Below are positions 38,127 through 52,445 of a stretch of DNA of 64,000 nt, one piece after another. The notes under the pieces are model-generated. The model was given only the letters and a program-made list of their open reading frames with translations. It was not told where the DNA came from and did no database searches. The DNA is from an uncultured Holophagales bacterium (GTDB taxonomy: Bacteria; Acidobacteriota; Thermoanaerobaculia; Multivoradales; UBA5704): NCBI GenBank assembly GCA_963842525.1, contig CAWJGT010000009.1, forward strand, positions 544,001-608,000, read 5' to 3'. The first letter of the stretch is position 1; the number at the start of each line of letters is the position of its first letter. Made by a program: the position numbers and the translations under genes.

Positions 38127-38729
38127 ATGAAGACCGATGCCGAGCTGGTGGCGAGCGCGCTCAAGGGCTCGCAGGAGGCGTTCCGCGAGCTCGTGGTGCG
38201 CTTCGAGCGCCCGGTCTACAGCCTGGTGGTGCGCATGGTCCAGGACCCGGGCTTGGCCGAGGACCTGGCCCAGGAGGTCTTTTTCAAGGCCTACCGCCGG
38301 CTCGACACCTACGATCCAGTGCGCAAGTTCTCGAGCTGGCTGTTCAAGATCGCGCACAACACCACCATCGACCACCTGCGGCGGCATGCGCCGGAGACGG
38401 TCCCGCTGGAGCCGGACGGGAAGGGCGACGACCGCGGAAGCCTTGCCGCGGTGCTGGCGGACACCTCCACGGAGGACCCGTCGGCTGCGGCAGAGCGCCG
38501 GGACATGGCAAGATCCCTGGAGCGCGCGATCGCCCGCCTGCGGCCCGAATACCGGGAGCTGGTGGTGCTCTTCTATGTGGAAGGGGCTTCGTACCAGGAC
38601 CTGTGCGACGCCACCGGGCTGCCTCTCGGGACCGTGAAGACGAACCTCCACCGGGCGCGCAAGGAGCTCGCCCACGAGATGGCGGCCCAGGGATGGGGGC
38701 CAGAAACCCGGAGCGCGCCGGCCTCGTAA
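38127..38729 (+). CDS. ECF RNA polymerase sigma factor (SigW/RpoE-like)
   Basis: AEDLAQEVF, FSSWLFKIAHN and GTVKTNLHRAR. Confidence 0.92.
   Translation: MKTDAELVASALKGSQEAFRELVVRFERPVYSLVVRMVQDPGLAEDLAQEVFFKAYRRLDTYDPVRKFSSWLFKIAHNTTIDHLRRHAPETVPLEPDGKGDDRGSLAAVLADTSTEDPSAAAERRDMARSLERAIARLRPEYRELVVLFYVEGASYQDLCDATGLPLGTVKTNLHRARKELAHEMAAQGWGPETRSAPAS
38703..38729 (+). promoter_or_regulatory. ECF-type promoter inside the sigma gene 3' end
   Basis: GAAAC-N17-CGTAA ending at the sigma stop codon. Confidence 0.45.
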
Positions 38730-38754
38730 GGCGAGGCGAAGGAGAAAGAACCGA

Positions 38755-39297
38755 ATGCGTCCCTCTCAGCAAGACCTCCTGGCCCGCTGGCTCGCCGCCG
38801 AGCGGGACGACCGCGCGGACGAAGCCGAGGCCGCGCTGCTCGCCCTGTTCGAGGAGCTGCCGCGTCCGGCGCCGCTGCCCGGGTTTGCCGACCGGGTCCT
38901 GGCGCGGACGGGTCTGGGGTTCATCGCAGCGCCGGTCCAGAGGAGCCTGTTCGCATCCCGCTGGCGACGTGTCGTGCTCGCGCTCGCCCTGGTGGCGACC
39001 GGCCTGTCGCTGTTCTGGCTGCCGGCGACCCTGACCGCACTGGCGGGCCTGTGGAGCTTCGGCGATCTCATCCAGCTCTCGACGGCCCTCTTCGCGAGCG
39101 CTGCCGAGGGCTTTGCCGAGCTCGCCGCCTTCGGGGACTGGCTGCTGACGCTGGGAATCTCTCTGGCGAGCCTGCTCGCGACGCCCACTGTGGCCGGGAT
39201 CATGATCGTCTGCCTCGTGGTGTCGACAGTTGCGTTCCGCTTTCTCCGCGACCTCATCACACGAGAGAGGAGTTGGATCCATGTGGAACCTATCTGA
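38755..39297 (+). CDS. putative membrane anti-sigma factor
   Basis: P.PGFADRVLAR motif plus TM helices, directly after the ECF gene. Confidence 0.65.
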   Translation: MRPSQQDLLARWLAAERDDRADEAEAALLALFEELPRPAPLPGFADRVLARTGLGFIAAPVQRSLFASRWRRVVLALALVATGLSLFWLPATLTALAGLWSFGDLIQLSTALFASAAEGFAELAAFGDWLLTLGISLASLLATPTVAGIMIVCLVVSTVAFRFLRDLITRERSWIHVEPI

Positions 39298-40894
39298 TCG
39301 ATGGAACCGGTGGGGGCTCGGAGCCCGGTGGCTCCGGGTCCTGGCGGTCCTCCTCGCCCTGGCCCTGCCCGGGGCGGAGCGGGCTGCCCTGGCACAACCC
39401 GAAGCGACAGCGTCGCGGCAGGAGCTGCGCGACGCTCTCGAGGAAAGATATGAGGTGCTCCCCCTCCAGGACGGCCTCGTGCTGCGCCCGCGCGAGTCGG
39501 AGCGTGGGGTGCGCACGATCGAGCTGAGCGACGGCACGGTCGCCATCAACGGCCAGCCGGTGAACGAGACGGTCGTCCGCGACTGGCTGGGCGAGGACGC
39601 GGGCCCGGTCCTCCAGCTCTGGCGCCTGCAGCCCGGCGAGCGGCGGGCCCTGTTCGACCTGCAGGCAGGCCGGGGGGGCGCGACGAGCGCGCCTCCTGCT
39701 TCCGAAGACACCCTCTCTGCCGAGGAGACGCCCGCGACGGAGGAGCCATCGACGACCGGCGAGAGCGAGATCCCGGACGTGCCCGAGGCACCCGAGACGC
39801 CGGAGGAGCCCGACTACGTCCGGTCCGACAGGACCTCTTCCGGCGGCCGCGTGAGGGTCTTCGGCAGCATCTCCGTGGAGAAGGGCGAGGTGGTCCGGGA
39901 GGCCGTCGCCGTGCTGGGCTCGGCCCGCATCGACGGCGAGGTGCTCGGCGACGTCGTGGCGGTCGGCGGCTCGGTCGAGGTCAACGGCAAGGTCGGCGGC
40001 ACGGTGACGGCGGTGGGGGGCGGCGTCCGCCTGGGCCCCAACGCGGAGGTGATGCAGGACGTCACCAGCGTCGGCGGCTCCATCGAGCGCGAGGAGGGGG
40101 CCCGGGTCCACGGCCAGTCCGCCGAGGTCCCCCTGGCGCCGGGCCGCCGGGGCTGGGACCACGACGTCGAATTCTTCCCCTGGTCCGTCCTGGATGGGCC
40201 GACGAGCGTGTTCTGGGAGCTCATCAGCCTCCTGGTGCTCGGCCTGCTGGTCTGCCTCTGCCTGCTGATCGCACGGAGGAGCGTGGAGCGGGCGGACCAC
40301 ATCGTCGCCACCGAGCCCTGGATTGCGGGCCTCGTCGGATTCCTGGCGCAGCTTCTCTTCATCCCGCTGCTGGTCGTGGTGACGATCCTGCTGGCGATCA
40401 CGATCATCGGCTGCGCGCTCTTCCTCCTCTATCCGTTCCTGTTCATCGCCCTCCTCCTGGCGGCCCTGGTCGGCTACACCGCCGTGGCCTACCGCCTGGG
40501 CCGGGTCCTCGAGGCCCGTTTCGGGCGGAGCTTCGGCAGCGCCTACGGGGTCGCCATGATCGGTGTGGTGGCCATCCAGATCTGGGCGATCTTCTCCCAC
40601 CTGCTCGGCATCGGCGGCGGGCCGCTCGACTTCATCGCCTTCATCCTGCTGGCCTTCGGCGCGGCGGTGGAGTACGTGGCCTGGACCGTGGGCTTCGGCG
40701 CCGTCCTGCTCGCCTGGTTCCGGGGTCCCAACCGGTGGCGGCGGACCGCCGCGGCCCCTCCCATGCCGGTCGCTCCGGTCCCGCCGCTCCCCGGGCCTCC
40801 GGCCTATGCGGACCCCGGCCCGACTTATCCCTCCAGCCCTGAATCCCTCCCGCTCTCCGAGCGGTGGGAGGAGCCGCCCCCTCCCGAGCGGTAG
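39281..40894 (+). CDS. bactofilin-like (polymer-forming) beta-helix domain membrane protein
   Basis: Repeats such as GDVVAVGGSVEVNGKVGG, multi-TM C-terminus and Pro-rich tail. Confidence 0.7.
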   Translation: MWNLSDRWNRWGLGARWLRVLAVLLALALPGAERAALAQPEATASRQELRDALEERYEVLPLQDGLVLRPRESERGVRTIELSDGTVAINGQPVNETVVRDWLGEDAGPVLQLWRLQPGERRALFDLQAGRGGATSAPPASEDTLSAEETPATEEPSTTGESEIPDVPEAPETPEEPDYVRSDRTSSGGRVRVFGSISVEKGEVVREAVAVLGSARIDGEVLGDVVAVGGSVEVNGKVGGTVTAVGGGVRLGPNAEVMQDVTSVGGSIEREEGARVHGQSAEVPLAPGRRGWDHDVEFFPWSVLDGPTSVFWELISLLVLGLLVCLCLLIARRSVERADHIVATEPWIAGLVGFLAQLLFIPLLVVVTILLAITIIGCALFLLYPFLFIALLLAALVGYTAVAYRLGRVLEARFGRSFGSAYGVAMIGVVAIQIWAIFSHLLGIGGGPLDFIAFILLAFGAAVEYVAWTVGFGAVLLAWFRGPNRWRRTAAAPPMPVAPVPPLPGPPAYADPGPTYPSSPESLPLSERWEEPPPPER

Positions 40895-40950
40895 GATTGA
40901 AAACCACGCCCGCTCTCCGTATCGAACAGGAGAGCGGGCGTGGCGCTCTC

Positions 40951-42063
40951 ATGATCCTCCCCGTCGAAGAGATCCTCGCCGCCCCGGCCGGCGCTCCGCC
41001 CCCGGGCCCCCCGGGTCGTACCCTCGGCCGGTCGCGCGAAGGCCGGGACATCGTTGGCTGGCGCTTCGGGCACGGGGACCTGCACGTCAGCCTGATCGGC
41101 GGCTGCCACGCCGACGAGCCGGTGGGGCCGGCCATGCTGCGGCGGCTCGTGGACTGGCTGGCGGACCGCCCGGCCGGCGATCCCCTTCTGGAGGCGGCCA
41201 CCTGGTCCATCGTCCCGCACGTCAATCCGGACGGCGAGGCGCGCAATGCCATCTGGAGCGAGACGACCCGGCCGGCGGCCGACCATCTCGGGGCTCCGGA
41301 CCGCGTCTACGACCTCGCCCCCTACCTGCGCCACGTCGTGCGGGAGAGGCCGGGCGACGACATGGAGTTCGGGTTTCCCCGCGGCGGGGACGACGCGGGA
41401 GCCCGGCCCGAGAACCGTGCCGTGGCGGCGTTCCTGGCCGAGGCGGCGCCGTTCCACCTCCACGCCAGCTTCCACAGCATCGGCTTCGCGACCGGCCCCT
41501 GGTTCCTGATCGAGCCGGCCTGGGTGGAGCGCACCGGGGGGCTGCGCGAGGCACTCCGCGCGCGTGTCCGGCAGATGGGCTACCAGCTCTTCGACGTCGA
41601 CCGCGGAGGAGAGAAGGGCTTCCGCCGCGTCGACGAAGGGTTCTCGACCCGCCCGGACGCGCTCTCGATGCGGGCGTGGTTCGAGGCGCGGGGAGATCCG
41701 GAGACGGCGGCCCTCTTCCGGCCGAGCTCGATGGACTACGTCCGCTCGCTGGGCGGCGACCCCTTCACGATGGTTTCCGAGATGCCGCTCTTCCTGCGCC
41801 CGTTGGAGGAAGGAGAGACGGGGCGCCCCGACGACCCGCGCTTCCGCGCCTGGCACCAGCGGATGGCCGCCTGCCGCACCCCCGAGGAGCTGCGGGCCGC
41901 CGCCGCGCGGGGCGGCGTGCGGGGCATGCCGCTGCGCGATCAGATGCGGCTGCAGCTCGCCTTCCTGGACGAGGGCTTGAAGATGGTGGGAGTTATGCCG
42001 TGGCGGCCCGCGGCTGCTCTTCCTCGCCGGGGGTGTCGAGGATCGAGCGGACGGTCTGGGTGA
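40951..42063 (+). CDS. M14 family zinc carboxypeptidase-like protein
   Basis: GRSREGR, GGCHADEPVG (HxxE), PHVNPDG and ASFH. Confidence 0.78.
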   Translation: MILPVEEILAAPAGAPPPGPPGRTLGRSREGRDIVGWRFGHGDLHVSLIGGCHADEPVGPAMLRRLVDWLADRPAGDPLLEAATWSIVPHVNPDGEARNAIWSETTRPAADHLGAPDRVYDLAPYLRHVVRERPGDDMEFGFPRGGDDAGARPENRAVAAFLAEAAPFHLHASFHSIGFATGPWFLIEPAWVERTGGLREALRARVRQMGYQLFDVDRGGEKGFRRVDEGFSTRPDALSMRAWFEARGDPETAALFRPSSMDYVRSLGGDPFTMVSEMPLFLRPLEEGETGRPDDPRFRAWHQRMAACRTPEELRAAAARGGVRGMPLRDQMRLQLAFLDEGLKMVGVMPWRPAAALPRRGCRGSSGRSG

Positions 42064-45000
42064 GCGTCTGCGGGGAGAACGGCTTCTGGAGGCAGGTCCA
42101 GGCGGCCTGGCCGGCCTGGAGCACCTCGTCGTTGTAGCCTGACATGTAGATCACCCGCGTCTGCGGCCGTTCGAGGAGGAGGCGGGTGGCGAGCTCCGAG
42201 CCCTTCATCCGCGGCATGGTGACGTCGGTCAGCAGAAGCTGGATGCCGCCGCGGTGCAGCCGGGAGATGGCCAGCGCCTCGTCGCCGGAGGCCGCCTGGA
42301 TCACCCGGTACCCCTTGCCGATCAGGATCTGGTGCAGCACCTTGCGGACGTCGTCCTCGTCCTCGACCAGCAGGATGGTCTCCGTGCCGGTGTCCGCGGT
42401 GGGGCCGGCGACCGCGATGCGCGGGGTCTCGGCGTCCCGCGACACCGGCAGGTAGAGTGAGAAGCAGGTCCCGTGGCCCGGCGTGCTGTCCACGAAAATG
42501 TGGCCGCTGCTCTGCTTGACGATGCCGTAGGCGGTGGCGAGCCCGAGGCCGGTCCCCTCGCCCTTGGTGCTGAAGAACGGCTCGAAGATGCGCGCCTGCG
42601 TCTCGGCGTCCATGCCGACGCCGGTGTCTTCGACCGTCAGCAGGACGTAGACACCGGGCGGGACGTTGGCGTGGCGCGCCGGGCTCTCGTCCGTCACCTC
42701 CACCGGTGCGGTCCGGATCGAGAGCCGGCCGCCGGACGGCATGGCGTGGCGGGCGTTCACCGCCAGGTTGACGATGACCTGCTCCATCTGCCCGGCGTCC
42801 ACCCGGACCTTGCCGGCCTCCGGGTGCAGGGCGGTCGCCAGGGAGATGTCCTCGCCGAGGAGCCGTTGCAGCATCTTCTCCAGGTTCGCGACGATCGGGT
42901 TGGGATCGAGCACCCGGGTCTCCATCGGCTGCCGGCGGGCGAAGGCGAGGAGCTGCTTGGTCAGGGCTGCCGCCCGCTGGCCCGCCTCCTTGATGCCGGT
43001 CACGTTGCGGCACAGGAAGGCGTCCTCGGCATAGCGGTCGAGCAGCAGGTCGCTGTAGCCGAAGATGGCCAGCAGGCAGTTGTTGAAGTCGTGGGCCACG
43101 CCCGCGGACAGGCGGCCGATCGCCTCCATCTTCTGGGAGAGGAGGAGCTGCCGCTGCAGCATCTTGTTTTCGGCTTCGTCCCGCTTGCGCTGGACGATGT
43201 CGCGGATCGCGATCACGGTGACGTCCTCGCCCTGGAAGACGTACTTCTTGCCCGCCATCTCGATGTCCACCGGCGTGCCGTCGCACATGTAGCCGATCCC
43301 CTCGCGCGGCACGTCGTCCAGGTCGGCCTCGCTGCCGGAGACGAGATCGGAGAGCCGGCGGCCGATCAGGCCGTCCGGCGTATGGCCGAAGATGCCGAGC
43401 AGAGCGTGGTTGACCTCCAGGATGACGCCGTTGCGCACGATGGCAATGCCTTCGAGGGTCGCCTCGAAGAGCGTCCGGAAGCGCTCCTCGCTGCGCCGGA
43501 TCTCCTCCTCGGCGGCCTTGCGCTGGGCGATCTCCTGCTGCGCGCGCTCGTAGAGGCGGATGTTCTCGACCATCGGCGCGATCTGATTGGCCACCGTCGA
43601 CAGGAGGTGGATGTCGCTGCGCGGAAAAAAGTCGTCCGGATCGCGGCGGCCGATGAGCCAGACGCCGACCGTCTTGGCCTGCACGGTGAGCGGGACGATC
43701 AGCCGTACCCAGCCGTAGCGGGACCCTGCCTCCTCGAGCGGGGGGATGTAGCGCCCGCCTTTCTCCAGGAGATGATGCAGCTCCCCGGCATCGGGCGGCG
43801 GCTCGCCCGCGGGCACGGCCTGCTCATAGAGGCTCTCGAGGCCTGCCTCGTCGATCAGGTACAACGCAGACTGGCGGATCATCAGGGCCGGCAGGATCTC
43901 GCCGGCGATCACGCGGGCCAGCACGGCGCGGTCGAACGCCGTCGGGATACGCTCCGAGACGAGGTCGATCACCTCCTCGGGACTGTGGCGGATGCCGAAG
44001 ACATGGCGGTCGACGAACGTCTGGAACCGGATGCGCAGGAAAGGCGCGGTCGAGACGAAGAGCAGGGAGGCCACGAGCATGGCGGCGAGGAGCTCGCCGT
44101 TGACGGGAGGCCACTGGCTGTTGATGACGAAGAGCGCCACCACATAGACGATGCTCGACAACGCCATGAAGCTGTACACCCCGAGCAGCCGGTTGGCGCG
44201 AAACTCCAGGGCGCCGAGGTGGTGCTTGTAGATGGCGTAGATATAGCTCATCGGCAGGGTGAGCAGGCAGACGACTCCGATGAAAGTGAACCAGGGATAG
44301 AGGAGGCGGATGTCGGAGATCAGGGTGCTGATCTGGTGGTAATACTGGGACACCAGGCCATAGAAGAGGCTGAAGGGCCCCAGGCCCAGGATCAGCCCGT
44401 ACAGCATGATCCGGTTGGCCACCTTGACGGCGGGTGCGAGGGGCATGAACAGCCGCGCCGCGAAGAGGGCGAGCGGCACGGCGATGCCGAGGAGGACGTT
44501 CCAGACGTACAGATGGCGGAGGAAGTCGAGCTCATAGAAGAAGAACGTGTCGAGCAGGCTCTGGACGAAAGCGATCGCATAGAGCGAGCCCAGCACGACC
44601 CAGCGCCGCCTGACGCTGAGCAGCGAGCTCGGGAGGATCAGGTGGAGATGGATGGACAGCGGCAGGAACCACCAGACCACCGCATGGAAGACGATGCTTG
44701 ATCCGCCGGCATGATAGGCGGCGATCTGGCCGGCCCCGAACCAGATGGCGGACACATAGCTGAAGACCACCAGGATGAGCCAGCGCTGGTCGCGTGGCCG
44801 CAGGAACAGGACGGCGATCGTGCCCATCAGCCAGAGGACCAGCGGCAGGAAGACGACGGGGGTGATGTCGGTGCCGAACTTGGCGAGGTTGTTGGCCCGG
44901 GGCAGGCGCACGCGAGCGCGAAAGCTCATGAGCTTGCCGTCGCGGATGAGCTCGACCGGGATCTTCCCGTCCTTGTCGATGCCCGAAAACGGTGTGAGCA

Positions 45001-45256
45001 GGCGGTCGCGCAGGTAGTCCTCGTACCGGATGCCGCCGATGGAGAGCAGGCGGTCTCCCACGAAGAGGCATCCTTCGCTCCCTGGCGGGCAGGGGACGGC
45101 CGCGAACACCTCCCAGCGGCCGGGAGACAAAGTGATGTCGATCGCGTTGGCCGCGCCGATGTAGGGGTAGTAGAGGCAGGGGAGGAGGACCACCAGCGAC
45201 ACGGCGACCCAGAAGAAATCGGTCTTGCTCCAGGAGAAGATCTGGCGGGTCTTCAT
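41993..45256 (-). CDS. hybrid sensor histidine kinase (PDZ-like, ~8 TM, GAF, PAS, HisKA, HATPase, REC) with ComP-like input
   Basis: VGDRLLSIGG...VELIRDG PDZ-like segment; H-box AHDFNN; G-box GTGLGL; REC motifs LLVEDE and LLTDVTMP. Confidence 0.9.
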   Translation of the reverse strand: MKTRQIFSWSKTDFFWVAVSLVVLLPCLYYPYIGAANAIDITLSPGRWEVFAAVPCPPGSEGCLFVGDRLLSIGGIRYEDYLRDRLLTPFSGIDKDGKIPVELIRDGKLMSFRARVRLPRANNLAKFGTDITPVVFLPLVLWLMGTIAVLFLRPRDQRWLILVVFSYVSAIWFGAGQIAAYHAGGSSIVFHAVVWWFLPLSIHLHLILPSSLLSVRRRWVVLGSLYAIAFVQSLLDTFFFYELDFLRHLYVWNVLLGIAVPLALFAARLFMPLAPAVKVANRIMLYGLILGLGPFSLFYGLVSQYYHQISTLISDIRLLYPWFTFIGVVCLLTLPMSYIYAIYKHHLGALEFRANRLLGVYSFMALSSIVYVVALFVINSQWPPVNGELLAAMLVASLLFVSTAPFLRIRFQTFVDRHVFGIRHSPEEVIDLVSERIPTAFDRAVLARVIAGEILPALMIRQSALYLIDEAGLESLYEQAVPAGEPPPDAGELHHLLEKGGRYIPPLEEAGSRYGWVRLIVPLTVQAKTVGVWLIGRRDPDDFFPRSDIHLLSTVANQIAPMVENIRLYERAQQEIAQRKAAEEEIRRSEERFRTLFEATLEGIAIVRNGVILEVNHALLGIFGHTPDGLIGRRLSDLVSGSEADLDDVPREGIGYMCDGTPVDIEMAGKKYVFQGEDVTVIAIRDIVQRKRDEAENKMLQRQLLLSQKMEAIGRLSAGVAHDFNNCLLAIFGYSDLLLDRYAEDAFLCRNVTGIKEAGQRAAALTKQLLAFARRQPMETRVLDPNPIVANLEKMLQRLLGEDISLATALHPEAGKVRVDAGQMEQVIVNLAVNARHAMPSGGRLSIRTAPVEVTDESPARHANVPPGVYVLLTVEDTGVGMDAETQARIFEPFFSTKGEGTGLGLATAYGIVKQSSGHIFVDSTPGHGTCFSLYLPVSRDAETPRIAVAGPTADTGTETILLVEDEDDVRKVLHQILIGKGYRVIQAASGDEALAISRLHRGGIQLLLTDVTMPRMKGSELATRLLLERPQTRVIYMSGYNDEVLQAGQAAWTCLQKPFSPQTLTQTVRSILDTPGEEEQPRAATA

Positions 45257-45413
45257 GGCTCGCTCGGCACAGCCGTGCCCCCGAGGGGCTTCGTCCCGGC
45301 CGTTCGTGGTCTTGGATCAGCGGTGGGATTGTACACCGGCGGAGGGAGGAACGGACCGCCCGCGAGGCTCGCGGGCTGGAACCGGCGGGCGCGTCCGTCC
45401 TCGATCGCCGTTC

Positions 45414-45617
45414 TTACGCCGGGCTGGGCTGGCGCTGCGCGTCGACTGGGCACCCCTCCCAAGGGATCCAGGCGCCGAAGGCTGGTTCCTCCTCTTCCTC
45501 TTCCGGGTTGGCCAGGCATTTCGGATCCGGGAGCAGGCTCAGCCTGCGCAGCGCGCTGAACAGGGCGTTGCTTTCATTCTGCGACACGAGCTTCGAATAG
45601 AAATCATGGATGGACAT
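45414..45617 (-). CDS. ComX-like peptide precursor 2 (67 aa, GAWIPWEG)
   Basis: GGAG RBS; clear paralog of 46973..47158. Confidence 0.75.
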   Translation of the reverse strand: MSIHDFYSKLVSQNESNALFSALRRLSLLPDPKCLANPEEEEEEPAFGAWIPWEGCPVDAQRQPSPA

Positions 45618-45896
45618 GGTTGCGTCTCCCGCGGGGAGTAGAGCATTGTTTCATCAACGGTTCCGACGGCTTCTGACGCTGCGCGAGAGGTGGGGCTTGG
45701 AGGGCTGCGCACCCGGTCGGTGCCTACAGCCTCCACGAAGATGTTCCTTGCTCGCAACCGGGCGGCGGGCGGAGGGTCCACGCGGAGTGCGATGGCCGCC
45801 GACATGATTTGGACCTCTCTTACGAGGCCGCCTCCAGGCGTGCCGCCGAAGCCGGCCGCTCTGCTCTGAAGCCAGTATAGCGCCCTTCGTTGCGGC

Positions 45897-46859
45897 TCAT
45901 GCGCGGACCTCCGAGAGGGTCGCCGGATCCTCGACGCCCACCAGCTCGAAGAGCCGGTGGAGCGGCCGCAGGTGGGAGCCGAGGAGCTCGTCGAGAGGCG
46001 CCGGATCGCGCAGCGCCAGCCGGGCCAGCCGGTCGCGGGACTCCTGCGAGATCTCGATCATCTTGAAGGCGCAGTAGCTCACGGCGCCGCTGCGCAGCAG
46101 GATCTTCTGCGCCTCTTCCAGGGCCTCGGGGTCCTGGTGGCGCGCGGCCAGATCGACGAACGCCTCGCGGTCCGGATGCTGGGCCGTCATGGCGAAGAGG
46201 ATCGGCAGGTTGTTCGAGCGGCGGTGCCAGTCGGTCCGCGGTGGCACCTGCAAAGCGTCCGAAAGGTCGTCGCTGACCTGGATGAACCGGCCCAGGACGT
46301 TGCCCCACTGGCCGATTTCGTCCGCCAGCTCGTCGGTGGCGCCGCCGAGCAGGGCTCCAAGGCGGAACGCCGCGCCGAACAGCGGCGGGGTCTTGGCCTC
46401 GACCACCCGCCAGTAGTCCTCCTCGCCGCGCAGATCGTGCAGGTCGAGGCTCTGGCCGAAGGCGGTCGCCAGGCCCATCTGGGCGAAGGTCGCCTGCAAG
46501 AGGCAACGGGTGCGGGCGTCCACGCCGGCGGCGTCCAGCAGGCGGTGCCCGGCAGCCTGGAAGGCGAGCGCCAGGTTCGCCGCCGGGCCGACGCCGAGGC
46601 GGATGTGGTCGCCCCGGGGATCCTCGTCCAGGATGTCGTCGACGAGATGGATGCTGAGCAGAGAGCAGAAGACTGCGGCGGCTCCCGGCAACGCGGCCTC
46701 GGGTGTCCCGCCGACGGCCCGGCAGGCGGCCACAGGGTAGTCCCAGACGGACACGCCACCCTCGCGGTGGCCCACGCGCTCGATCAGCTCCAGCATCTCC
46801 GGCCAGGCGGCGACCTCGGGGATCGTCCGGACCTGCGCCTTCATCTCCTCGAAGCTCAT
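45897..46859 (-). CDS. isoprenoid synthase-fold prenyltransferase, ComQ-like
   Basis: First Asp-rich motif HLVDDILDED, GQSLDL, KT and second motif QVSDDLSD; sits between two Trp-containing peptides. Confidence 0.85.
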   Translation of the reverse strand: MSFEEMKAQVRTIPEVAAWPEMLELIERVGHREGGVSVWDYPVAACRAVGGTPEAALPGAAAVFCSLLSIHLVDDILDEDPRGDHIRLGVGPAANLALAFQAAGHRLLDAAGVDARTRCLLQATFAQMGLATAFGQSLDLHDLRGEEDYWRVVEAKTPPLFGAAFRLGALLGGATDELADEIGQWGNVLGRFIQVSDDLSDALQVPPRTDWHRRSNNLPILFAMTAQHPDREAFVDLAARHQDPEALEEAQKILLRSGAVSYCAFKMIEISQESRDRLARLALRDPAPLDELLGSHLRPLHRLFELVGVEDPATLSEVRA

Positions 46860-46972
46860 TCCTTGACTCCTTTGTCGTGCTCGTCTTGGAGAAGCGCCCG
46901 CGGGCTCGTTGCGCTGGACCCGCGGACGCTGCTTCCGGCCTGATTACGTTCCCGTGTGCCGGGATGGACGGA

Positions 46973-47158
46973 TCAGGCCGTCACCTCAGACACTCCGGGC
47001 GGGTTCGACGGGTCGCCCCAGGGGATCCACTCCCCGAGAGGCTCCTCGCTGAACATGCTCTTCGGGTCGTCCAGCAGGCTCAGCTTGCGCAGCGTTCCCA
47101 GCAGCGCGTTCTCCTCGTTCATGGAAACAAGCCTCGAATAGAAGTCATGAATGGACAT
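46973..47158 (-). CDS. ComX-like peptide precursor 1 (61 aa, GEWIPWGD)
   Basis: GGAG RBS; MSIHDFYSRLVS..E.NAL...LR.LSLL.DPK. Confidence 0.75.
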   Translation of the reverse strand: MSIHDFYSRLVSMNEENALLGTLRKLSLLDDPKSMFSEEPLGEWIPWGDPSNPPGVSEVTA

Positions 47159-47452
47159 GGGCGTAGCTCTCCCGATGTGCAGAGGGGATTTCCCCTGCGG
47201 TTCAACGTTAAAAAAGAAAACAGGTGACGACTTCGTACGTCCGGAACTGCAGCGGGTTACTTCTAGGGTATGGGTGGGAGCACGATTTGAAACCCTCCAA
47301 AAGAAAGAAAAAGATTGACGAAGACTGCAACGTGCGCGCTCGTCGATCTCTACAGTGCTCAGTCCGTGGTCAACCGTGACACGGTCGAGGCCAAGATCTT
47401 TTTTCCCCGCGACTGGAGGGCTGGTGGGACGCGGGAAGGGCGCGAACGCCTG

Positions 47453-48683
47453 TCAGGTCGGGGACGGGAGGACGCCGAGCCGCTCGGAGGTCTCGAGCCG
47501 GATCGGGTGGGCGAGGCCGCCGCGCAGCGCCTGGACGAGCTCGCGGCCGGGCAGCGGCTTGAGGAAGTAATAGCCCTGCGCGTAGTCGATGCCGAGGAGC
47601 CGCAGCACCTCGGCGTCCTCGGCAGTTTCCACTGCCTCCATGATCGTCGCGGTGCCCGCGCGCGCCGCCATCTCGGCGGTGCTCTGCACGATGATCTGTT
47701 TGAACGGGTCGCGGGCGAGGTTGCGGCAGAAGGTCCCGGAGATCTTGAGGAAATCCGGGCGGAGGTCCTGGAACAGGTTGAGGTTCGAGGAGCCCTCGCC
47801 GAAGTCGTCGAGCGCGATCCGGAAGCCGATCTCGCGCAGCCTGCCGAGGGTGGCCGCGAAAGCGCGCGGATTGACGATCGTCTGCTGCTCGGTCAGCTCG
47901 AGGACGATGCTTCGCTCGGCCATCCCCGAAGCCCGGACCGCCTCGCACAGCCGCGTCGTGAGCTCCGGATTGGTCAGCGAGCGCGGCTGGACGTTCAGGA
48001 ACGTGGTCACCGGGATGTCGAGCTGGCGCACCTCGGCCAGGGCCGCCCGGATGCAGATCATGTCCGCTTCGAACAGCAGCTCCTTGCGGGCCGCGTAGGC
48101 GAGCAGGAACGACGGGTTCCCCAGCACCGAGGTGTTGGGGCCGCGCGCCAGCCCCTCGACGCCGAAGACCTCGAACGACTCGCGGCGGTCGCGCAGCTTG
48201 ACGACCGGCTGCAGCACCGAGCGGATCGTGTTGGCCGCCAGGAAGTCTTCGAGGAGCTCGACCTGCTCGACCTCGGAGCCTCTCCTCGCGCTCGCTGTTC
48301 GTGCTCGCGATGGCGGCGCGGCGCTCCAGCAGCAGGCTGCGGAGCTGGCCGAGACCGTCCGGCTTCTCCAGGACCGCGCTCACGCCCAGCACGGAGCAGA
48401 GCGAGCGCACGCTCTCGTCGATATAGCCGGAGAGGACGTAGACCGTCGTATCCGGGAAGTGGGTGGTGACGAAGCGGATCAGCCGCATCCCCTCCAGCCC
48501 GCCCAGGCGGGACACGGAGAGGTCGGTGACGACCACGTCGAAGCGGAACGAGCTGAGCAGCGCCTCGGCCGCCTCGATCTCCAGACAGGTCGTCAGGTGC
48601 ACGCCGGGCATGCGCAGCCATACCGCGAGCGTGTCGACCACCATCGACTCATCGTCGAGCACTAAGACACGGAGCACGCGCAC
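47453..48683 (-). CDS. response regulator, REC plus EAL (c-di-GMP phosphodiesterase) (frameshift ~48280)
   Basis: REC motifs VLVLDD and VVTDL; EAL motifs QPVV, EGLAR, LELTE, ALDDFGEG and QGYYF. Confidence 0.82.

Positions 48684-51046: not shown

Positions 51047-52445
<1,399 letters not shown>

Follow-up and report, generated by a model that had tools for sequence, protein, structure and literature searches.

Organization of the locus

The window analysed here, a 64,000-nucleotide stretch from an uncultured Holophagales bacterium of the acidobacterial class Thermoanaerobaculia, carries a compact cassette encoding two short peptides, an enzyme of the isoprenoid synthase fold, and a large sensor kinase (Table 1). 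A preceding sequence-only reading had described these as four co-oriented genes, and the open reading frame listing bore out both the arrangement and the coordinates. The motifs it had quoted were also found, including the common N-terminal leader and G.WIPW of the peptides and the enzyme segments HLVDDILDED and QVSDDLSD. That set of genes was incomplete, since a conserved REC-EAL gene lying directly upstream had been missed. In Thermoanaerobaculia the full cassette thus comprises five genes in the order REC-EAL, peptide, enzyme, peptide, and sensor kinase, and the Chloroflexota version keeps the cassette without the EAL gene.

Table 1. Coordinates of the cassette genes, domains, and intergenic regions within the window
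Feature	Positions	Strand	Basis
Peptide 1 (61 aa)	46973-47158	minus	ORF listing
Enzyme (320 aa)	45897-46859	minus	ORF listing
Peptide 2 (67 aa)	45414-45617	minus	ORF listing
Kinase (1087 aa)	41993-45256	minus	ORF listing
Sensor module of kinase, residues 1-440	43937-45256	minus	Hydropathy, AlphaFold2 model
PDZ-like beta domain, kinase residues ~41-115	44912-45136	minus	AlphaFold2 model
Cytoplasmic transmitter (GAF, PAS, HisKA, HATPase_c, REC)	41993-43936	minus	Pfam
REC-EAL gene, directly upstream of peptide 1 region	47453-48683	minus	Pfam, tblastn
Intergenic region 5' of peptide 1	47159-47452	minus	Sequence reading
Intergenic region between peptide 1 and enzyme, with two strong stem-loops	46860-46972	minus	RNA folding

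The intergenic region 5' of peptide 1 is locally A+T-rich, contains a GGGAGAG Shine-Dalgarno-like motif 8 nt from the ATG, and presumably provides the promoter and 5' leader of this gene; searches of the region returned no sigma-70-like site, no Rfam family, and no unusual folding (z = +1.18). Downstream of peptide 1, the RNA of 46860-46990 folds at -61 kcal/mol (z = -4.0), a stability reached by none of 200 shuffled sequences. No terminator with a U-tract was found between peptide 1 and the enzyme, and the stem-loops there may act as a partial terminator or as an mRNA stabiliser that sets the peptide-to-enzyme ratio.

Precursor peptides

The two peptides are 55% identical and share a common anatomy. 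Peptide 1 consists of a leader (residues ~1-36, with an invariant F6 and a near-invariant L23), a W44-x-x-W47 core, and a 14-residue tail, while peptide 2 combines the same leader with an acidic linker of six glutamates (E39-E44), a W50-x-x-W53 core, and a tail of equal length. The earlier description of two precursors, two tryptophans per core, and a long tail holds in the window. Among 50 aligned peptides, F6 and one tryptophan are invariant and 45 contain WxxW; the flanking segments and tails show the hypervariability typical of RiPP cores. The last tryptophan lies 14 residues from the C-terminus in the window and 0-3 residues from it in most Chloroflexota relatives. Neither window peptide matches any Pfam or NCBIfam model, leader families included. 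A soil metatranscriptome contig of 158 nt aligns with positions 45458-45615, within peptide 2, with one mismatch, a weak hint that this peptide is expressed.

Enzyme

The enzyme has the trans-isoprenyl-diphosphate-synthase fold, retains both aspartate-rich motifs, and has lost the motifs of the isopentenyl diphosphate (IPP) site. The first motif comprises D74, D75, D78, and D80, and the second, preceded by Q194, follows the pattern Q194-x-x-D197-D198-x-x-D201; D74, D75, D78, K156, Q194, D197, D198, and D201 are invariant in all 43 aligned sequences. Among the 136 family representatives with a recognisable second motif, 133 show DDxxD and two show ND.

In canonical synthases, four motifs mark the IPP site: GGKRxRP in region I, a histidine preceding the first aspartate-rich motif, RRG following that motif, and GK...(E)GKxT following the second. 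When the window enzyme and seven other family members were aligned with the four ordinary synthases encoded elsewhere in the same genome, all four motifs were present in the paralogues and altered or deleted throughout the family. In the window enzyme, GGKRxRP has become W39..P42, the upstream histidine is lost, RRG reads PRG, and the GK...EGKxT segment is deleted. A chain-elongating synthase of the IspA, IspB, or GGPPS type was considered as an assignment and rejected, as these motifs are altered or deleted and every NCBIfam cut-off is missed.

Public automatic annotation names such proteins 'geranylgeranyl pyrophosphate synthase' or 'polyprenyl synthetase family protein', and a protein atlas shows PF00348 clusters only, as would suit a housekeeping polyprenyl diphosphate synthase placed by chance beside small open reading frames and a kinase. 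This explanation is very improbable: the PF00348 score is 57.5 bits against 178-218 bits for each of the genome's four real paralogues, all 14 matches to NCBIfam synthase models fall far below their cut-offs (the best at 73.5 bits against 450), and the IPP-site motifs are gone. A quick tree placed the family apart from the canonical paralogues of the window's genome with 98% SH-aLRT.

The family stands apart from canonical synthases, with 262 representatives at E<=1e-30 against 3015 at E<=1e-10. In a sequence comparison with solved structures, 9imq was matched at E=1.2e-13 and the tryptophan prenyltransferase Ord1 (9v4g) at 1.8e-4. The AlphaFold2 model of the enzyme (pLDDT 95) matched synthase structures at TM 0.72-0.78; the top matches were all canonical synthases, and Ord1 was not among the matches listed. 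By both sequence and fold, the enzyme is closer to chain-elongating synthases than to Ord1. Its sequence features and the modelling described below suggest that it is probably a peptide tryptophan prenyltransferase.

Conservation and co-occurrence of the cassette

Related loci numbered 46 distinct examples, 18 from Thermoanaerobaculia and 28 from Chloroflexota. A family peptide was identified in 45 of them, 39 through a profile and six by eye or regular expression, leaving L063 as the sole locus without one. The N-terminal sensor module adjoins the enzyme in 38 of the 41 loci with enough flank (five loci that stop at a contig edge were left out of this count); L036, L041, and L044 have enough flank and no adjacent sensor. 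The neighbourhood conservation that had been proposed as a check is thus seen for peptide and sensor in two phyla. The peptide is preceded by the EAL gene at 14 of the 18 distinct loci from acidobacteria and at none of the 28 from Chloroflexota.

Among 301 genomes of the window's class, 13 encode the enzyme family (>=333 bits), and the same 13 encode the sensor module (>=259 bits); one further genome, G659, has a weak sensor-module match of 134 bits. The window's own genome holds one enzyme, one sensor, and two peptides, the sensor module giving a single match. The peptide-family profile matched this 9.95-Mb genome exactly twice, both times beside the enzyme, so that the grouping of these peptides goes beyond chance. 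The strict adjacency and co-occurrence of the enzyme with peptide and sensor also speak against a housekeeping synthase. The loci examined share no conserved gene for a transporter, immunity, or a protease, and the M14 carboxypeptidase gene that neighbours the cassette in the window is not conserved at related loci.

Modelled enzyme-peptide complex

Structure prediction supports binding of the peptide leader by the enzyme. Complex models gave ipSAE values of 0.77, 0.76, and 0.76, compared with 0.01 for the best control, a result that again disfavours a chance neighbour of housekeeping function. In the benchmark, 58 of 80 solved complexes and two of 110 mismatched pairs attained this mark, counts that are only roughly valid here because the complex model was built from our own alignments. 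The runs agreed in at least 51% of contacts, with a partner pLDDT of at least 59. The best contacts join F6 and L23 of the peptide to enzyme residues 258-265, a stretch in which G258 and S261 are invariant across the family and Y262 nearly so, and the modelled leader-binding surface spans approximately residues 221-228, 251-269, and 299-318. The leader was placed confidently and the tryptophan core was not.

The enzyme could instead make a small isoprenoid or polyprenyl compound that the sensor detects, with the peptides serving as regulatory or scaffold partners rather than substrates. Such an activity would fit the intact, canonical aspartate-rich motifs, the chain-elongating synthases that are nearest in sequence and fold, and a model in which only the leader is bound and no tryptophan occupies the active site. 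It is nevertheless quite improbable, given that the IPP-site motifs are gone in all aligned family members and that the genome already has four canonical synthases; moreover, nothing in the peptide cores is invariant except tryptophan, a pattern more in keeping with a substrate than with a scaffold.

Sensor kinase and REC-EAL gene

The membrane-bound part of the kinase had been read as about eight transmembrane segments, and hydropathy and AlphaFold2 modelling revealed ten membrane helices instead, one before and nine after a beta domain of about 75 residues. The sensor module was modelled with a pLDDT of 86 and a pTM of 0.85, is kept in both phyla, and has invariant residues that include R153-P154, H203, and R353. 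Comparison with PDB folds gave no relative at E<=0.001, and the local PDZ matches were weak; Foldseek aligned it locally with the PDZ domains of DegP and DegS (E 0.14-0.15, probability 0.99, 86-100 columns). The N-terminus of the window kinase matches nothing in Pfam even at E<=10, and the orthologue in L008 matches PDZ_2 at E=1.3e-4 with 22.6 bits, under the cut-off of 27. The PDZ-like label given earlier thus draws weak support from the local fold matches and the sub-threshold orthologue, and none from Pfam on the window protein itself.

The transmitter carries GAF, PAS, HisKA, HATPase_c, and REC domains in Pfam. Its designation as a CckA-type hybrid kinase is apt for transmitter likeness and for nothing beyond it, with CckA as the best NCBIfam match at 374 bits, where the cut-off is 1000. 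In Thermoanaerobaculia the sensor module is fused to a hybrid kinase, and in other loci to HisKA-HATPase (L009, L010, L013), to HATPase (L011, L014), or to HD_5 of the HD-GYP type (L008). We presume that the module is the receptor of the modified peptide.

The REC-EAL gene scores 48.1 bits for Response_reg and 154.2 bits for EAL. The window copy is split over two frames, and the break falls in the linker joining the two domains, between about 48296 and 48318; in tblastn with the protein of L003, residues 8-120 aligned in one frame and residues 128-405 in another. In L001-L007 the gene is a single open reading frame of 404-429 aa. This protein, of the c-di-GMP phosphodiesterase type, is likely the output of the cassette. 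No Hpt protein that would relay phosphate from the hybrid kinase to REC-EAL was seen.

Lantibiotic kinases are known to autoregulate production or to provide immunity, and the cassette might likewise make a lipidated RiPP natural product, such as a membrane-active antimicrobial lipopeptide, with a sensor that merely autoregulates or confers immunity rather than serving a dedicated cell-to-cell signal. The enzyme-peptide evidence would be the same for both readings, two diverged precursors per locus are common in bioactive RiPP clusters, and the available parts of the reports regard the products of ChrPC and PalQ as RiPP natural products (PMC10853753; PMC13290415). This reading is still unlikely, because genes for transport, immunity, or proteolysis are not conserved in the loci examined, the partner that is strictly conserved is the sensor module, and a c-di-GMP phosphodiesterase-type output occurs in two lineages, as an EAL neighbour gene and as the HD_5 fusion, which points to control of behaviour rather than antibiotic production.

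Comparison with known systems

The cassette had been proposed to be ComQXP-like, and this likeness holds for the logic of the system. Both systems combine a prenyl-synthase-fold enzyme, a short tryptophan-containing precursor, and a polytopic histidine kinase in co-oriented, adjacent genes, and the shared logic is supported by adjacency and co-occurrence in two phyla, the invariant tryptophan, the lost IPP-site motifs, and a complex model that holds up against its controls. At the level of protein families the likeness fails, and on the features tested the cassette lies outside the ComQ, ComX, ComP, and ComA families. The gene order is Q-X-P-A in Bacillus and X-Q-X-P, with two precursors, in the window.

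The window enzyme shares with ComQ (IPR033965) the PF00348 fold and a first motif of DDxxD (D74-D75-x-x-D78). The second motif of ComQ is a pseudo-motif NDxxx in the available text of a recent preprint, in which the N186D substitution in one ComQ is reported to lower activity by ~90% (10.64898/2026.08.29.745113), whereas the window enzyme has a canonical DDxxD. Bacillus ComX precursors of 52-73 aa with an essential tryptophan, described in the accessible part of a census (PMC4008528), are comparable in size to the window peptides. The census criterion places this tryptophan within 5-10 residues of the C-terminus (PMC4008528), a position that the window peptides do not share and that most of their Chloroflexota relatives do. 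None of 24 peptides matched the Pfam ComX model (PF05952), even at E<=10, and the WGD of peptide 1, once taken as a resemblance to ComX, is coincidental, because the residues after the second tryptophan vary freely among relatives (WPP, WGS, WNE, WEG, WY, and others).

The window kinase resembles ComP in its polytopic N-terminus and HATPase_c domain, but carries HisKA (PF00512) with a PDZ-like domain, GAF, PAS, and REC, compared with HisKA_3 (PF07730) and HATPase_c in ComP as given in the census text available (PMC4008528). The claim that the cassette lacks comA stands insofar as no protein combining REC with a LuxR-type HTH (PF00196) is present; it had overlooked the conserved REC-EAL partner in that place.

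The census, in the part available, contains no com-like loci outside Firmicutes (PMC4008528). A location outside Bacillota, which had been emphasized, is no longer new by itself, given StheQ/StheX of a Chloroflexi species (August 2026) and the P domain of ChrPC, which a 2026 review counts as another tryptophan prenyltransferase with this fold (PMC13290415). For this pair from Sphaerobacter thermophilus, the preprint text available reports tryptophan farnesylation by LC-MS/MS and a peptide-binding pocket mapped to helices alpha6-alpha9 (10.64898/2026.08.29.745113). StheQ/StheX resembles the cassette in its trans-IDS-fold enzyme outside Firmicutes, an adjacent peptide of ~69 aa, and a phylum, Chloroflexi, in which the present family also has many members. 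StheX, unlike the window peptides, is encoded downstream of stheQ and ends in W-W-x, and StheQ has a pseudo-motif N215-D216-x-x-D219 with a single Mg site. In the available text of the preprint, the word 'kinase' has no occurrences and no receptor is described (10.64898/2026.08.29.745113).

PalQ/PalX/PalP of Paenibacillus alvei likewise pairs a histidine kinase with a precursor and a prenyltransferase of the isoprenoid synthase superfamily (PMC10853753, from the portion available). According to the accessible parts of two reports, the PalX leader boosts prenylation and an AlphaFold complex was used in its discovery; PalX carries an NHLP-type leader, its tryptophan is strictly C-terminal, and extension past this residue abolishes activity (PMC10853753; PMC13290415). 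The cassette leader, in contrast, forms a new family without an NCBIfam or Pfam match, and the tryptophan is internal in the window. The P domain of ChrPC is trans-IDS-like and prenylates an internal tryptophan of a ribosomal peptide with C10-C20 donors, and a fused cyclase domain cyclises the prenyl group (PMC13290415, in the sections available). Unlike ChrPC, three longer proteins taken from the 150 best representatives of the present family (P0194, P0261, P0182) matched no domain family besides PF00348 above its cut-off. The genome mining for ChrPC might already include the present enzyme family. All characterised trans-IDS-like peptide prenyltransferases target tryptophan, as stated in the accessible text of a 2026 review (PMC13290415). 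No description of the cassette was found in the literature searched, where the StheQ/StheX, PalQXP, and ChrPC studies come nearest.

Proposed mechanism

The cassette is probably a ComQXP-like system that produces a tryptophan-prenylated, RiPP-type peptide signal with a c-di-GMP output. From genes, conservation, adjacency, co-occurrence, a motif pattern, and a modelled enzyme-leader interface, all established computationally, we infer prenylation, where it occurs and with what chain length, export of the product, recognition of the ligand by its receptor, and the route of phosphotransfer. Counting against the proposal are the canonical second motif, the closeness of the enzyme to chain-elongating synthases, the tryptophan core that the model does not place, the internal tryptophans of the window peptides, the lack of a conserved protease or exporter, the outer membrane to be crossed, the missing Hpt protein, the frame-broken REC-EAL gene of this assembly, and the three loci that have no adjacent sensor. 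The precursors encoded by the two small genes would each begin with a helical leader of ~35 residues, followed by a W-x-x-W core and a variable tail. The enzyme would have kept its binding of an allylic diphosphate (GPP, FPP, or GGPP) and lost that of IPP; with the leader docked on its C-terminal helices, it would prenylate a tryptophan of the core, probably the second and perhaps both. As the tryptophan lies well inside the window peptides, extra trimming would be needed. The cassette has no conserved protease or exporter, and the lipidated peptide would be trimmed and exported by machinery encoded elsewhere. The neighbouring sensor would then detect it through the extracytoplasmic PDZ-like domain, the nine-helix membrane domain, or both. 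Phosphate would next move, in Thermoanaerobaculia, from the hybrid kinase to the neighbouring REC-EAL protein, with a resulting change in c-di-GMP turnover. A Bacillus-style peptide signal would thus operate in an outer-membrane bacterium. The window's host differs from Bacillus in having Omp85 outer-membrane machinery, of which homologues are present, and a lipidated peptide would need to cross the outer membrane.

A broader form of this proposal is possible, though doubtful. It holds that the cassette encodes an independently evolved lipidated-peptide autoinducer of outer-membrane soil bacteria, with a synthase that kept both metal-binding motifs and was recruited separately from ComQ to prenylate the W-x-x-W core of a new leader family. 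The receptor would belong to a new class, in which the periplasmic PDZ-like domain reads the peptide end and the nine-helix domain reads the prenyl group, c-di-GMP hydrolysis would be switched directly or indirectly, and the module would have moved once between Chloroflexota and Thermoanaerobaculia. If true, c-di-GMP switching by the receptor would set the choice between biofilm and motility.

Architecture of the cassette and its most likely mechanism

By textbook account, peptide pheromones with a prenylated tryptophan are peculiar to Bacillus and its relatives. The cassette that the sequence-only reading had put forward as a ComQXP-like system is confirmed as an observation, and the ORF listing recovers all four of its genes co-oriented on the minus strand (see the table of features), although that gene list was incomplete, a REC-EAL response regulator having been overlooked. 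The mechanism considered most likely, on sequence comparison and structural models, is that the enzyme would prenylate a Trp of two precursor peptides under the guidance of their leaders, that a dedicated PDZ-like polytopic receptor would sense the prenylated product, and that this receptor would control the hydrolysis of c-di-GMP. The earlier reading is thereby kept in its logic and amended in several details that were wrong or incomplete: on the features tested, the cassette appears to work like ComQXP without being a member of the ComQ, ComX, ComP or ComA families.

Features of the cassette and of neighbouring genes in the window
Feature	Positions	Strand	Length	Annotation
REC-EAL response regulator	47453-48683	minus		Pfam; directly upstream of peptide 1
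Peptide 1	46973-47158	minus	61 aa	ORF listing
Enzyme	45897-46859	minus	320 aa	PF00348 polyprenyl_synt, 57.5 bits
Peptide 2	45414-45617	minus	67 aa	ORF listing
Kinase	41993-45256	minus	1087 aa	Pfam GAF, PAS, HisKA, HATPase_c, REC
M14 zinc carboxypeptidase	40864-42063	plus		convergent with the kinase
ECF sigma factor	38127-38729	plus		first gene of the region 38127-40894
NtrC-type regulator	51047-52445	plus		REC in the ORF starting at 51047; Sigma54_activat, AAA lid and HTH_8 in the ORF 51453-52445

Reading of the sequence places a GGGAG-type ribosome-binding motif 7-8 nt 5' of the ATG of both peptides, and neither a promoter and terminator scan (no site above chance) nor an Rfam search (zero families) returned further elements. 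RNA folding predicts two strong hairpins after peptide 1 (z = -4.0; 0 of 200 shuffles fold equally well) and a weaker one after peptide 2 (z = -2.0), which could set the peptide-to-enzyme ratio. Inside peptide 2, a 158-nt contig of a soil metatranscriptome library aligns to 45458-45615 with a single mismatch; this hints weakly at expression, with DNA carry-over as an alternative source. In any one public sequencing run, at most 12% of the sampled window words were present.

A distinct enzyme family with the prenyl-synthase fold

The enzyme falls far below all NCBIfam synthase cut-offs (best match 73.5 bits against 450), and the four other PF00348 proteins of the genome are ordinary, at 178-218 bits. 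Motifs were compared by aligning the window enzyme and seven further members of its family with the four canonical paralogues. Retained in the family are the first Asp-rich motif (D74, D75, D78, D80), the GQxxD motif, K156, Q194 and a canonical second Asp-rich motif (D197, D198, D201); the residues D74, D75, D78, K156, Q194, D197, D198 and D201 are invariant in 43 of 43 family enzymes. The family replaces GGKRxRP by W39..P42, lacks the His upstream of the first motif, carries PRG in place of RRG and has lost the GK...EGKxT segment after the second motif through a six-residue deletion; these lost motifs are the ones that make up the IPP site. Searching 1.84 billion proteins yielded 262 family representatives at 50% identity (E<=1e-30), and among the best 150 of these the second motif is recognisable in 136, as Q-x-x-DDxxD in 133 and as ND in 2. 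The protein atlas returned generic PF00348 clusters only.

The best PDB fold matches of the AlphaFold2 enzyme model (pLDDT 95, pTM 0.93) are canonical synthases (TM 0.72-0.78, 16-25% identity), and canonical synthases are likewise the nearest solved proteins by sequence (9imq, E=1.2e-13; Ord1, 9v4g, 1.8e-4). Ord1 is absent among the fold matches listed, which comprise some of the ranks up to 50; the PDB sequence matches listed include Ord1 (9v4g to 9v4j) and no entry for StheQ, a Chloroflexi enzyme. That 9V4J is Ord1 follows the StheQ preprint (bioRxiv 10.64898/2026.08.29.745113).

In a quick maximum-likelihood tree, with support given as SH-aLRT and without bootstrap, the family splits from the genome's canonical paralogues at 98%. 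All 19 acidobacterial enzymes group together in a single clade (99%), placed among several clades of Chloroflexota, a topology that fits one transfer between Chloroflexota and Acidobacteriota. Because the family retains the canonical second Asp-rich motif and lies close to ordinary synthases, its sequences suggest a separate recruitment of the prenyl-synthase fold.

Precursor peptides and their modelled binding to the enzyme

The two window peptides are 55% identical. A MAFFT alignment of 50 peptides has a mean column identity of 28%; all sequences share F6 and one Trp, and conservation is 90% or higher at L23 and at the other Trp. In a smaller alignment both Trp were invariant. W-x-x-W is found in 45 of the 50, and the other five, from loci L033, L034, L035, L038 and L039 of one Chloroflexota subclade, end in [VI]-G-W-x. 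MAFFT puts the single Trp of these five into the first Trp column; against this placement it is read here as the probable second Trp of the core, because it is preceded by Gly and the nearest relatives have W-x-G-W. Chloroflexota peptides mostly have 0-3 residues beyond the Trp, those of Thermoanaerobaculia usually go on with P(P) and 5-25 residues of variable tail, and both window peptides extend 14 residues beyond the last Trp. The WGD that peptide 1 was said to share with ComX is not kept among its relatives, and a Pfam search of 24 peptides at E<=10 gave zero family matches, ComX included. The combination of leader conservation, a tiny invariant core and hypervariable flanking sequence is the pattern of RiPP precursors.

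Binding between enzyme and peptide is supported by a complex model built from the enzyme (alignment of 43) and peptide 1 (alignment of 50), which scored 0.77, 0.76 and 0.76 against 0.01 for the best control. For calibration, 58 of 80 solved complexes and 2 of 110 mismatched pairs attained this score mark, proportions that apply only roughly here, where own alignments were used. The runs had at least 51% of contacts in common and a partner pLDDT of at least 59. The confident modelled interface joins peptide residues 1-36 with enzyme residues 221-228, 251-269 and 299-318, and its tightest pairs bring peptide F6 and L23 to enzyme residues 258-265, of which G258 and S261 are invariant in the family and Y262 nearly so. 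A family-specific enzyme patch would thus meet conserved leader residues. The placement of the Trp core is not confident in this model.

The sensor module and its predicted output

The GAF, PAS, HisKA, HATPase and REC domains ascribed to the kinase by the sequence-only reading are all present, and its estimate of about eight transmembrane helices is raised to ten by hydropathy and AlphaFold2. The N-terminal module consists of TM1 at 11-36, a beta-rich domain at 41-115 and nine more helices to 418, and the model of residues 1-450 has a pLDDT of 86 and a pTM of 0.85. Ten helices in total would place the GAF-PAS-kinase-REC part in the cytoplasm, and on this model the beta-rich domain must lie outside it. 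Solved structures gave zero matches to the sensor model at E<=0.001; the only specific local fold matches, at E 0.14-0.15, are to RseP and to the PDZ domains of DegP and DegS, and one orthologue has a sub-threshold PDZ_2 match. PDZ domains typically bind peptide C-termini, an analogy that suggests the PDZ-like domain as the reader of the peptide end. Six Omp85-family matches in the window's own genome make an outer membrane likely in the host; LpxC had no match in the genome (96% complete), in which lipid A synthesis by the usual route is undetected.

The module is kept across both phyla at 21-48% identity, with D68, R153-P154, W159, H203 and R353 among its invariant residues. A homologue search by region listed 120 sequences, all acidobacterial hybrid kinases, and the diversity of output domains was derived from the related loci: the output is a hybrid kinase in Thermoanaerobaculia and a plain kinase in L009, L010 and L013, HATPase is the sole domain detected in L011 and L014, and an HD_5 (HD-GYP-type) domain is fused in L008. 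Since the outputs vary in this way, the module rather than the kinase is the constant partner of enzyme and peptide, as would be expected of a receptor. The neighbouring REC-EAL gene and the fused HD_5 domain appear to be two independent routes to c-di-GMP phosphodiesterase domains.

In the Anaerolineales MAG with the HD_5 fusion (L008:6914-9397), sensor module and GAF are joined to HD_5 with no kinase, and a 1079-aa TPR/BTAD protein with a weak AAA_22 match is encoded just upstream of the sensor. In the window the REC-EAL gene is split over two frames, with the break (48296-48318) in the inter-domain linker, and its relatives are single ORFs of 404-429 aa; the break may be either an assembly indel error or a genuine disruption of the cassette's output gene. 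The NtrC-type regulator is also split over two frames, at about 51440-51460, and because this second linker break lies within 4 kb, assembly indels are a likely cause of both.

Conservation and co-occurrence of the cassette

The window's genome (9.95 Mb, 34 contigs) holds one copy of the enzyme family, one sensor and two peptides. A scan of one genome per species detected 16 related loci, 9 of them in MAGs labelled Thermoanaerobaculia or Acidobacteriota and 7 in MAGs labelled Anaerolineales or Chloroflexota, and further loci came from 401 genomes of one Chloroflexota class and 301 genomes of the window's class, giving 46 distinct loci after de-duplication, the window excluded. A same-family peptide is present in 45 of the 46 (the profile recovered 39, inspection by eye or regex a further 6); profile, eye and regex found none in L063. 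The sensor module adjoins the enzyme in 38 of the 41 loci with enough flank (L036, L041 and L044 being without it), a count that leaves out five loci ending at a contig edge. The EAL gene lies upstream in 14 of 18 acidobacterial loci versus 0 of 28 Chloroflexota loci.

Enzyme scores are bimodal: 24 of the 401 Chloroflexota-class genomes score 224-461 bits, the lowest value belonging to a gene cut by a contig end, and the next genome scores 119 bits. The enzyme reaches 333 bits or more in 13 of the 301 genomes of the window's class, and these are limited to three families, f1 (6 of 7), f7 (1 of 3) and f9 (5 of 5). The sensor module occurs in the same 13 genomes, beside the enzyme every time, and one additional genome of the class has a weak match (134 bits). 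Three genomes of family f13, including G581 (flagged unpublished), have intermediate enzyme matches of 148-170 bits, and the 301-genome search found zero sensor modules in f13. Co-occurrence and copy number together make the case for functional linkage as strong as comparative genomics can make it.

Loci with two precursors are typical among close relatives of the window (L001-L007, L016, L055), and a single precursor is found in more distant Thermoanaerobaculia and nearly all Chloroflexota.

Relation to known peptide prenylation systems

The accessible text of the 2014 ComQXPA census records zero com-like loci outside Firmicutes and defines ComX by PF05952 and a Trp near the C-terminus, ComP as polytopic with HisKA_3 and HATPase, and ComA by REC and a LuxR HTH (PMC4008528). 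Compared with ComQXPA, the window cassette has the architecture and differs in every family-specific feature tested. According to the available parts of an August 2026 preprint, StheQ is a trans-IDS-fold enzyme of a Chloroflexi species with demonstrated Trp farnesylation; StheX, downstream of the StheQ gene, ends in W-W-x, no receptor is described there, and this was the first enzyme-peptide pair to be reported outside Firmicutes (bioRxiv 10.64898/2026.08.29.745113). The main difference is that in ComQ and StheQ, as far as these sources extend, the second pseudo-motif begins with Asn, whereas the window's family has a canonical DDxxD. PalQXP of Paenibacillus comprises a kinase and an NHLP-type precursor whose Trp is strictly C-terminal (PMC10853753; PMC13290415). 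A 2026 review names ComQ, the ChrPC P domain and PalQ as the trans-IDS-like peptide prenyltransferases known, with Trp as the target of every characterised one (PMC13290415). Among mostly open papers, taken without supplements, no description was found of the Acidobacteriota cassette, the W-x-x-W leader-peptide family, the sensor module or the c-di-GMP link.

New here are a large, sharply defined enzyme family, a putative receptor that always travels with a predicted peptide-modifying enzyme, and the predicted output of the cassette, c-di-GMP breakdown. Acidobacteriota are abundant in soil and hard to grow, and to our knowledge almost none of their signalling chemistry has been described. The cassette opens to testing whether outer-membrane bacteria use lipidated peptide signals, how a membrane sensor reads a lipidated peptide ligand, and how often the prenyl-synthase fold has been turned to peptide modification. 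The predicted enzyme might also serve as a biocatalyst for lipidating Trp, including internal Trp.

Neighbouring genes and locus variants

The M14 zinc carboxypeptidase was considered as a tail-trimming enzyme and rejected: it is conserved in 0 of 16 loci with 6-kb flanks, the one match being spurious and on the opposite strand. The ECF sigma factor is followed by a 180-aa and a 554-aa ORF, both without a Pfam family, the latter with a C-terminal half judged hydrophobic by eye; this region shows no linkage to the cassette in relatives.

Several loci depart from the common layout. A tandem duplication at L007:3344-6108 gives the order peptide-enzyme-peptide-enzyme-kinase, and L024 and L025 (genomes G328 and G286) have one peptide followed by two enzyme genes in tandem. 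The MAG of L005 contains a second whole cassette on a different contig (L012), with EAL, enzyme and kinase each in several frames and the second peptide truncated, which may reflect decay of a duplicate, strain variation or poor assembly. P0194, a public 655-aa gene call among the enzyme representatives, joins enzyme residues 1-246 to the sensor start (TM1 and PDZ-like domain) by way of a linker that looks out of frame; a frame error is the most likely explanation, and the joined call again shows the adjacency of enzyme and sensor. At one Chloroflexota locus the gene that immediately follows the kinase (L010:9368-10963) encodes a B12-binding radical SAM protein, which may be an additional tailoring enzyme.

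Sister prenyl-synthase-fold families occur in the Chloroflexota class at L047, L049, L050 and L051, with enzyme matches of about 107-114 bits. Their upstream ORFs encode 67-100 aa with a leader differing from that of the window's family, and L049 (ending PWG) and L051 (ending GWF) have their Trp at or close to the C-terminus, L047 and L050 12-13 residues before it; in L049 a distant relative of the sensor module adjoins.
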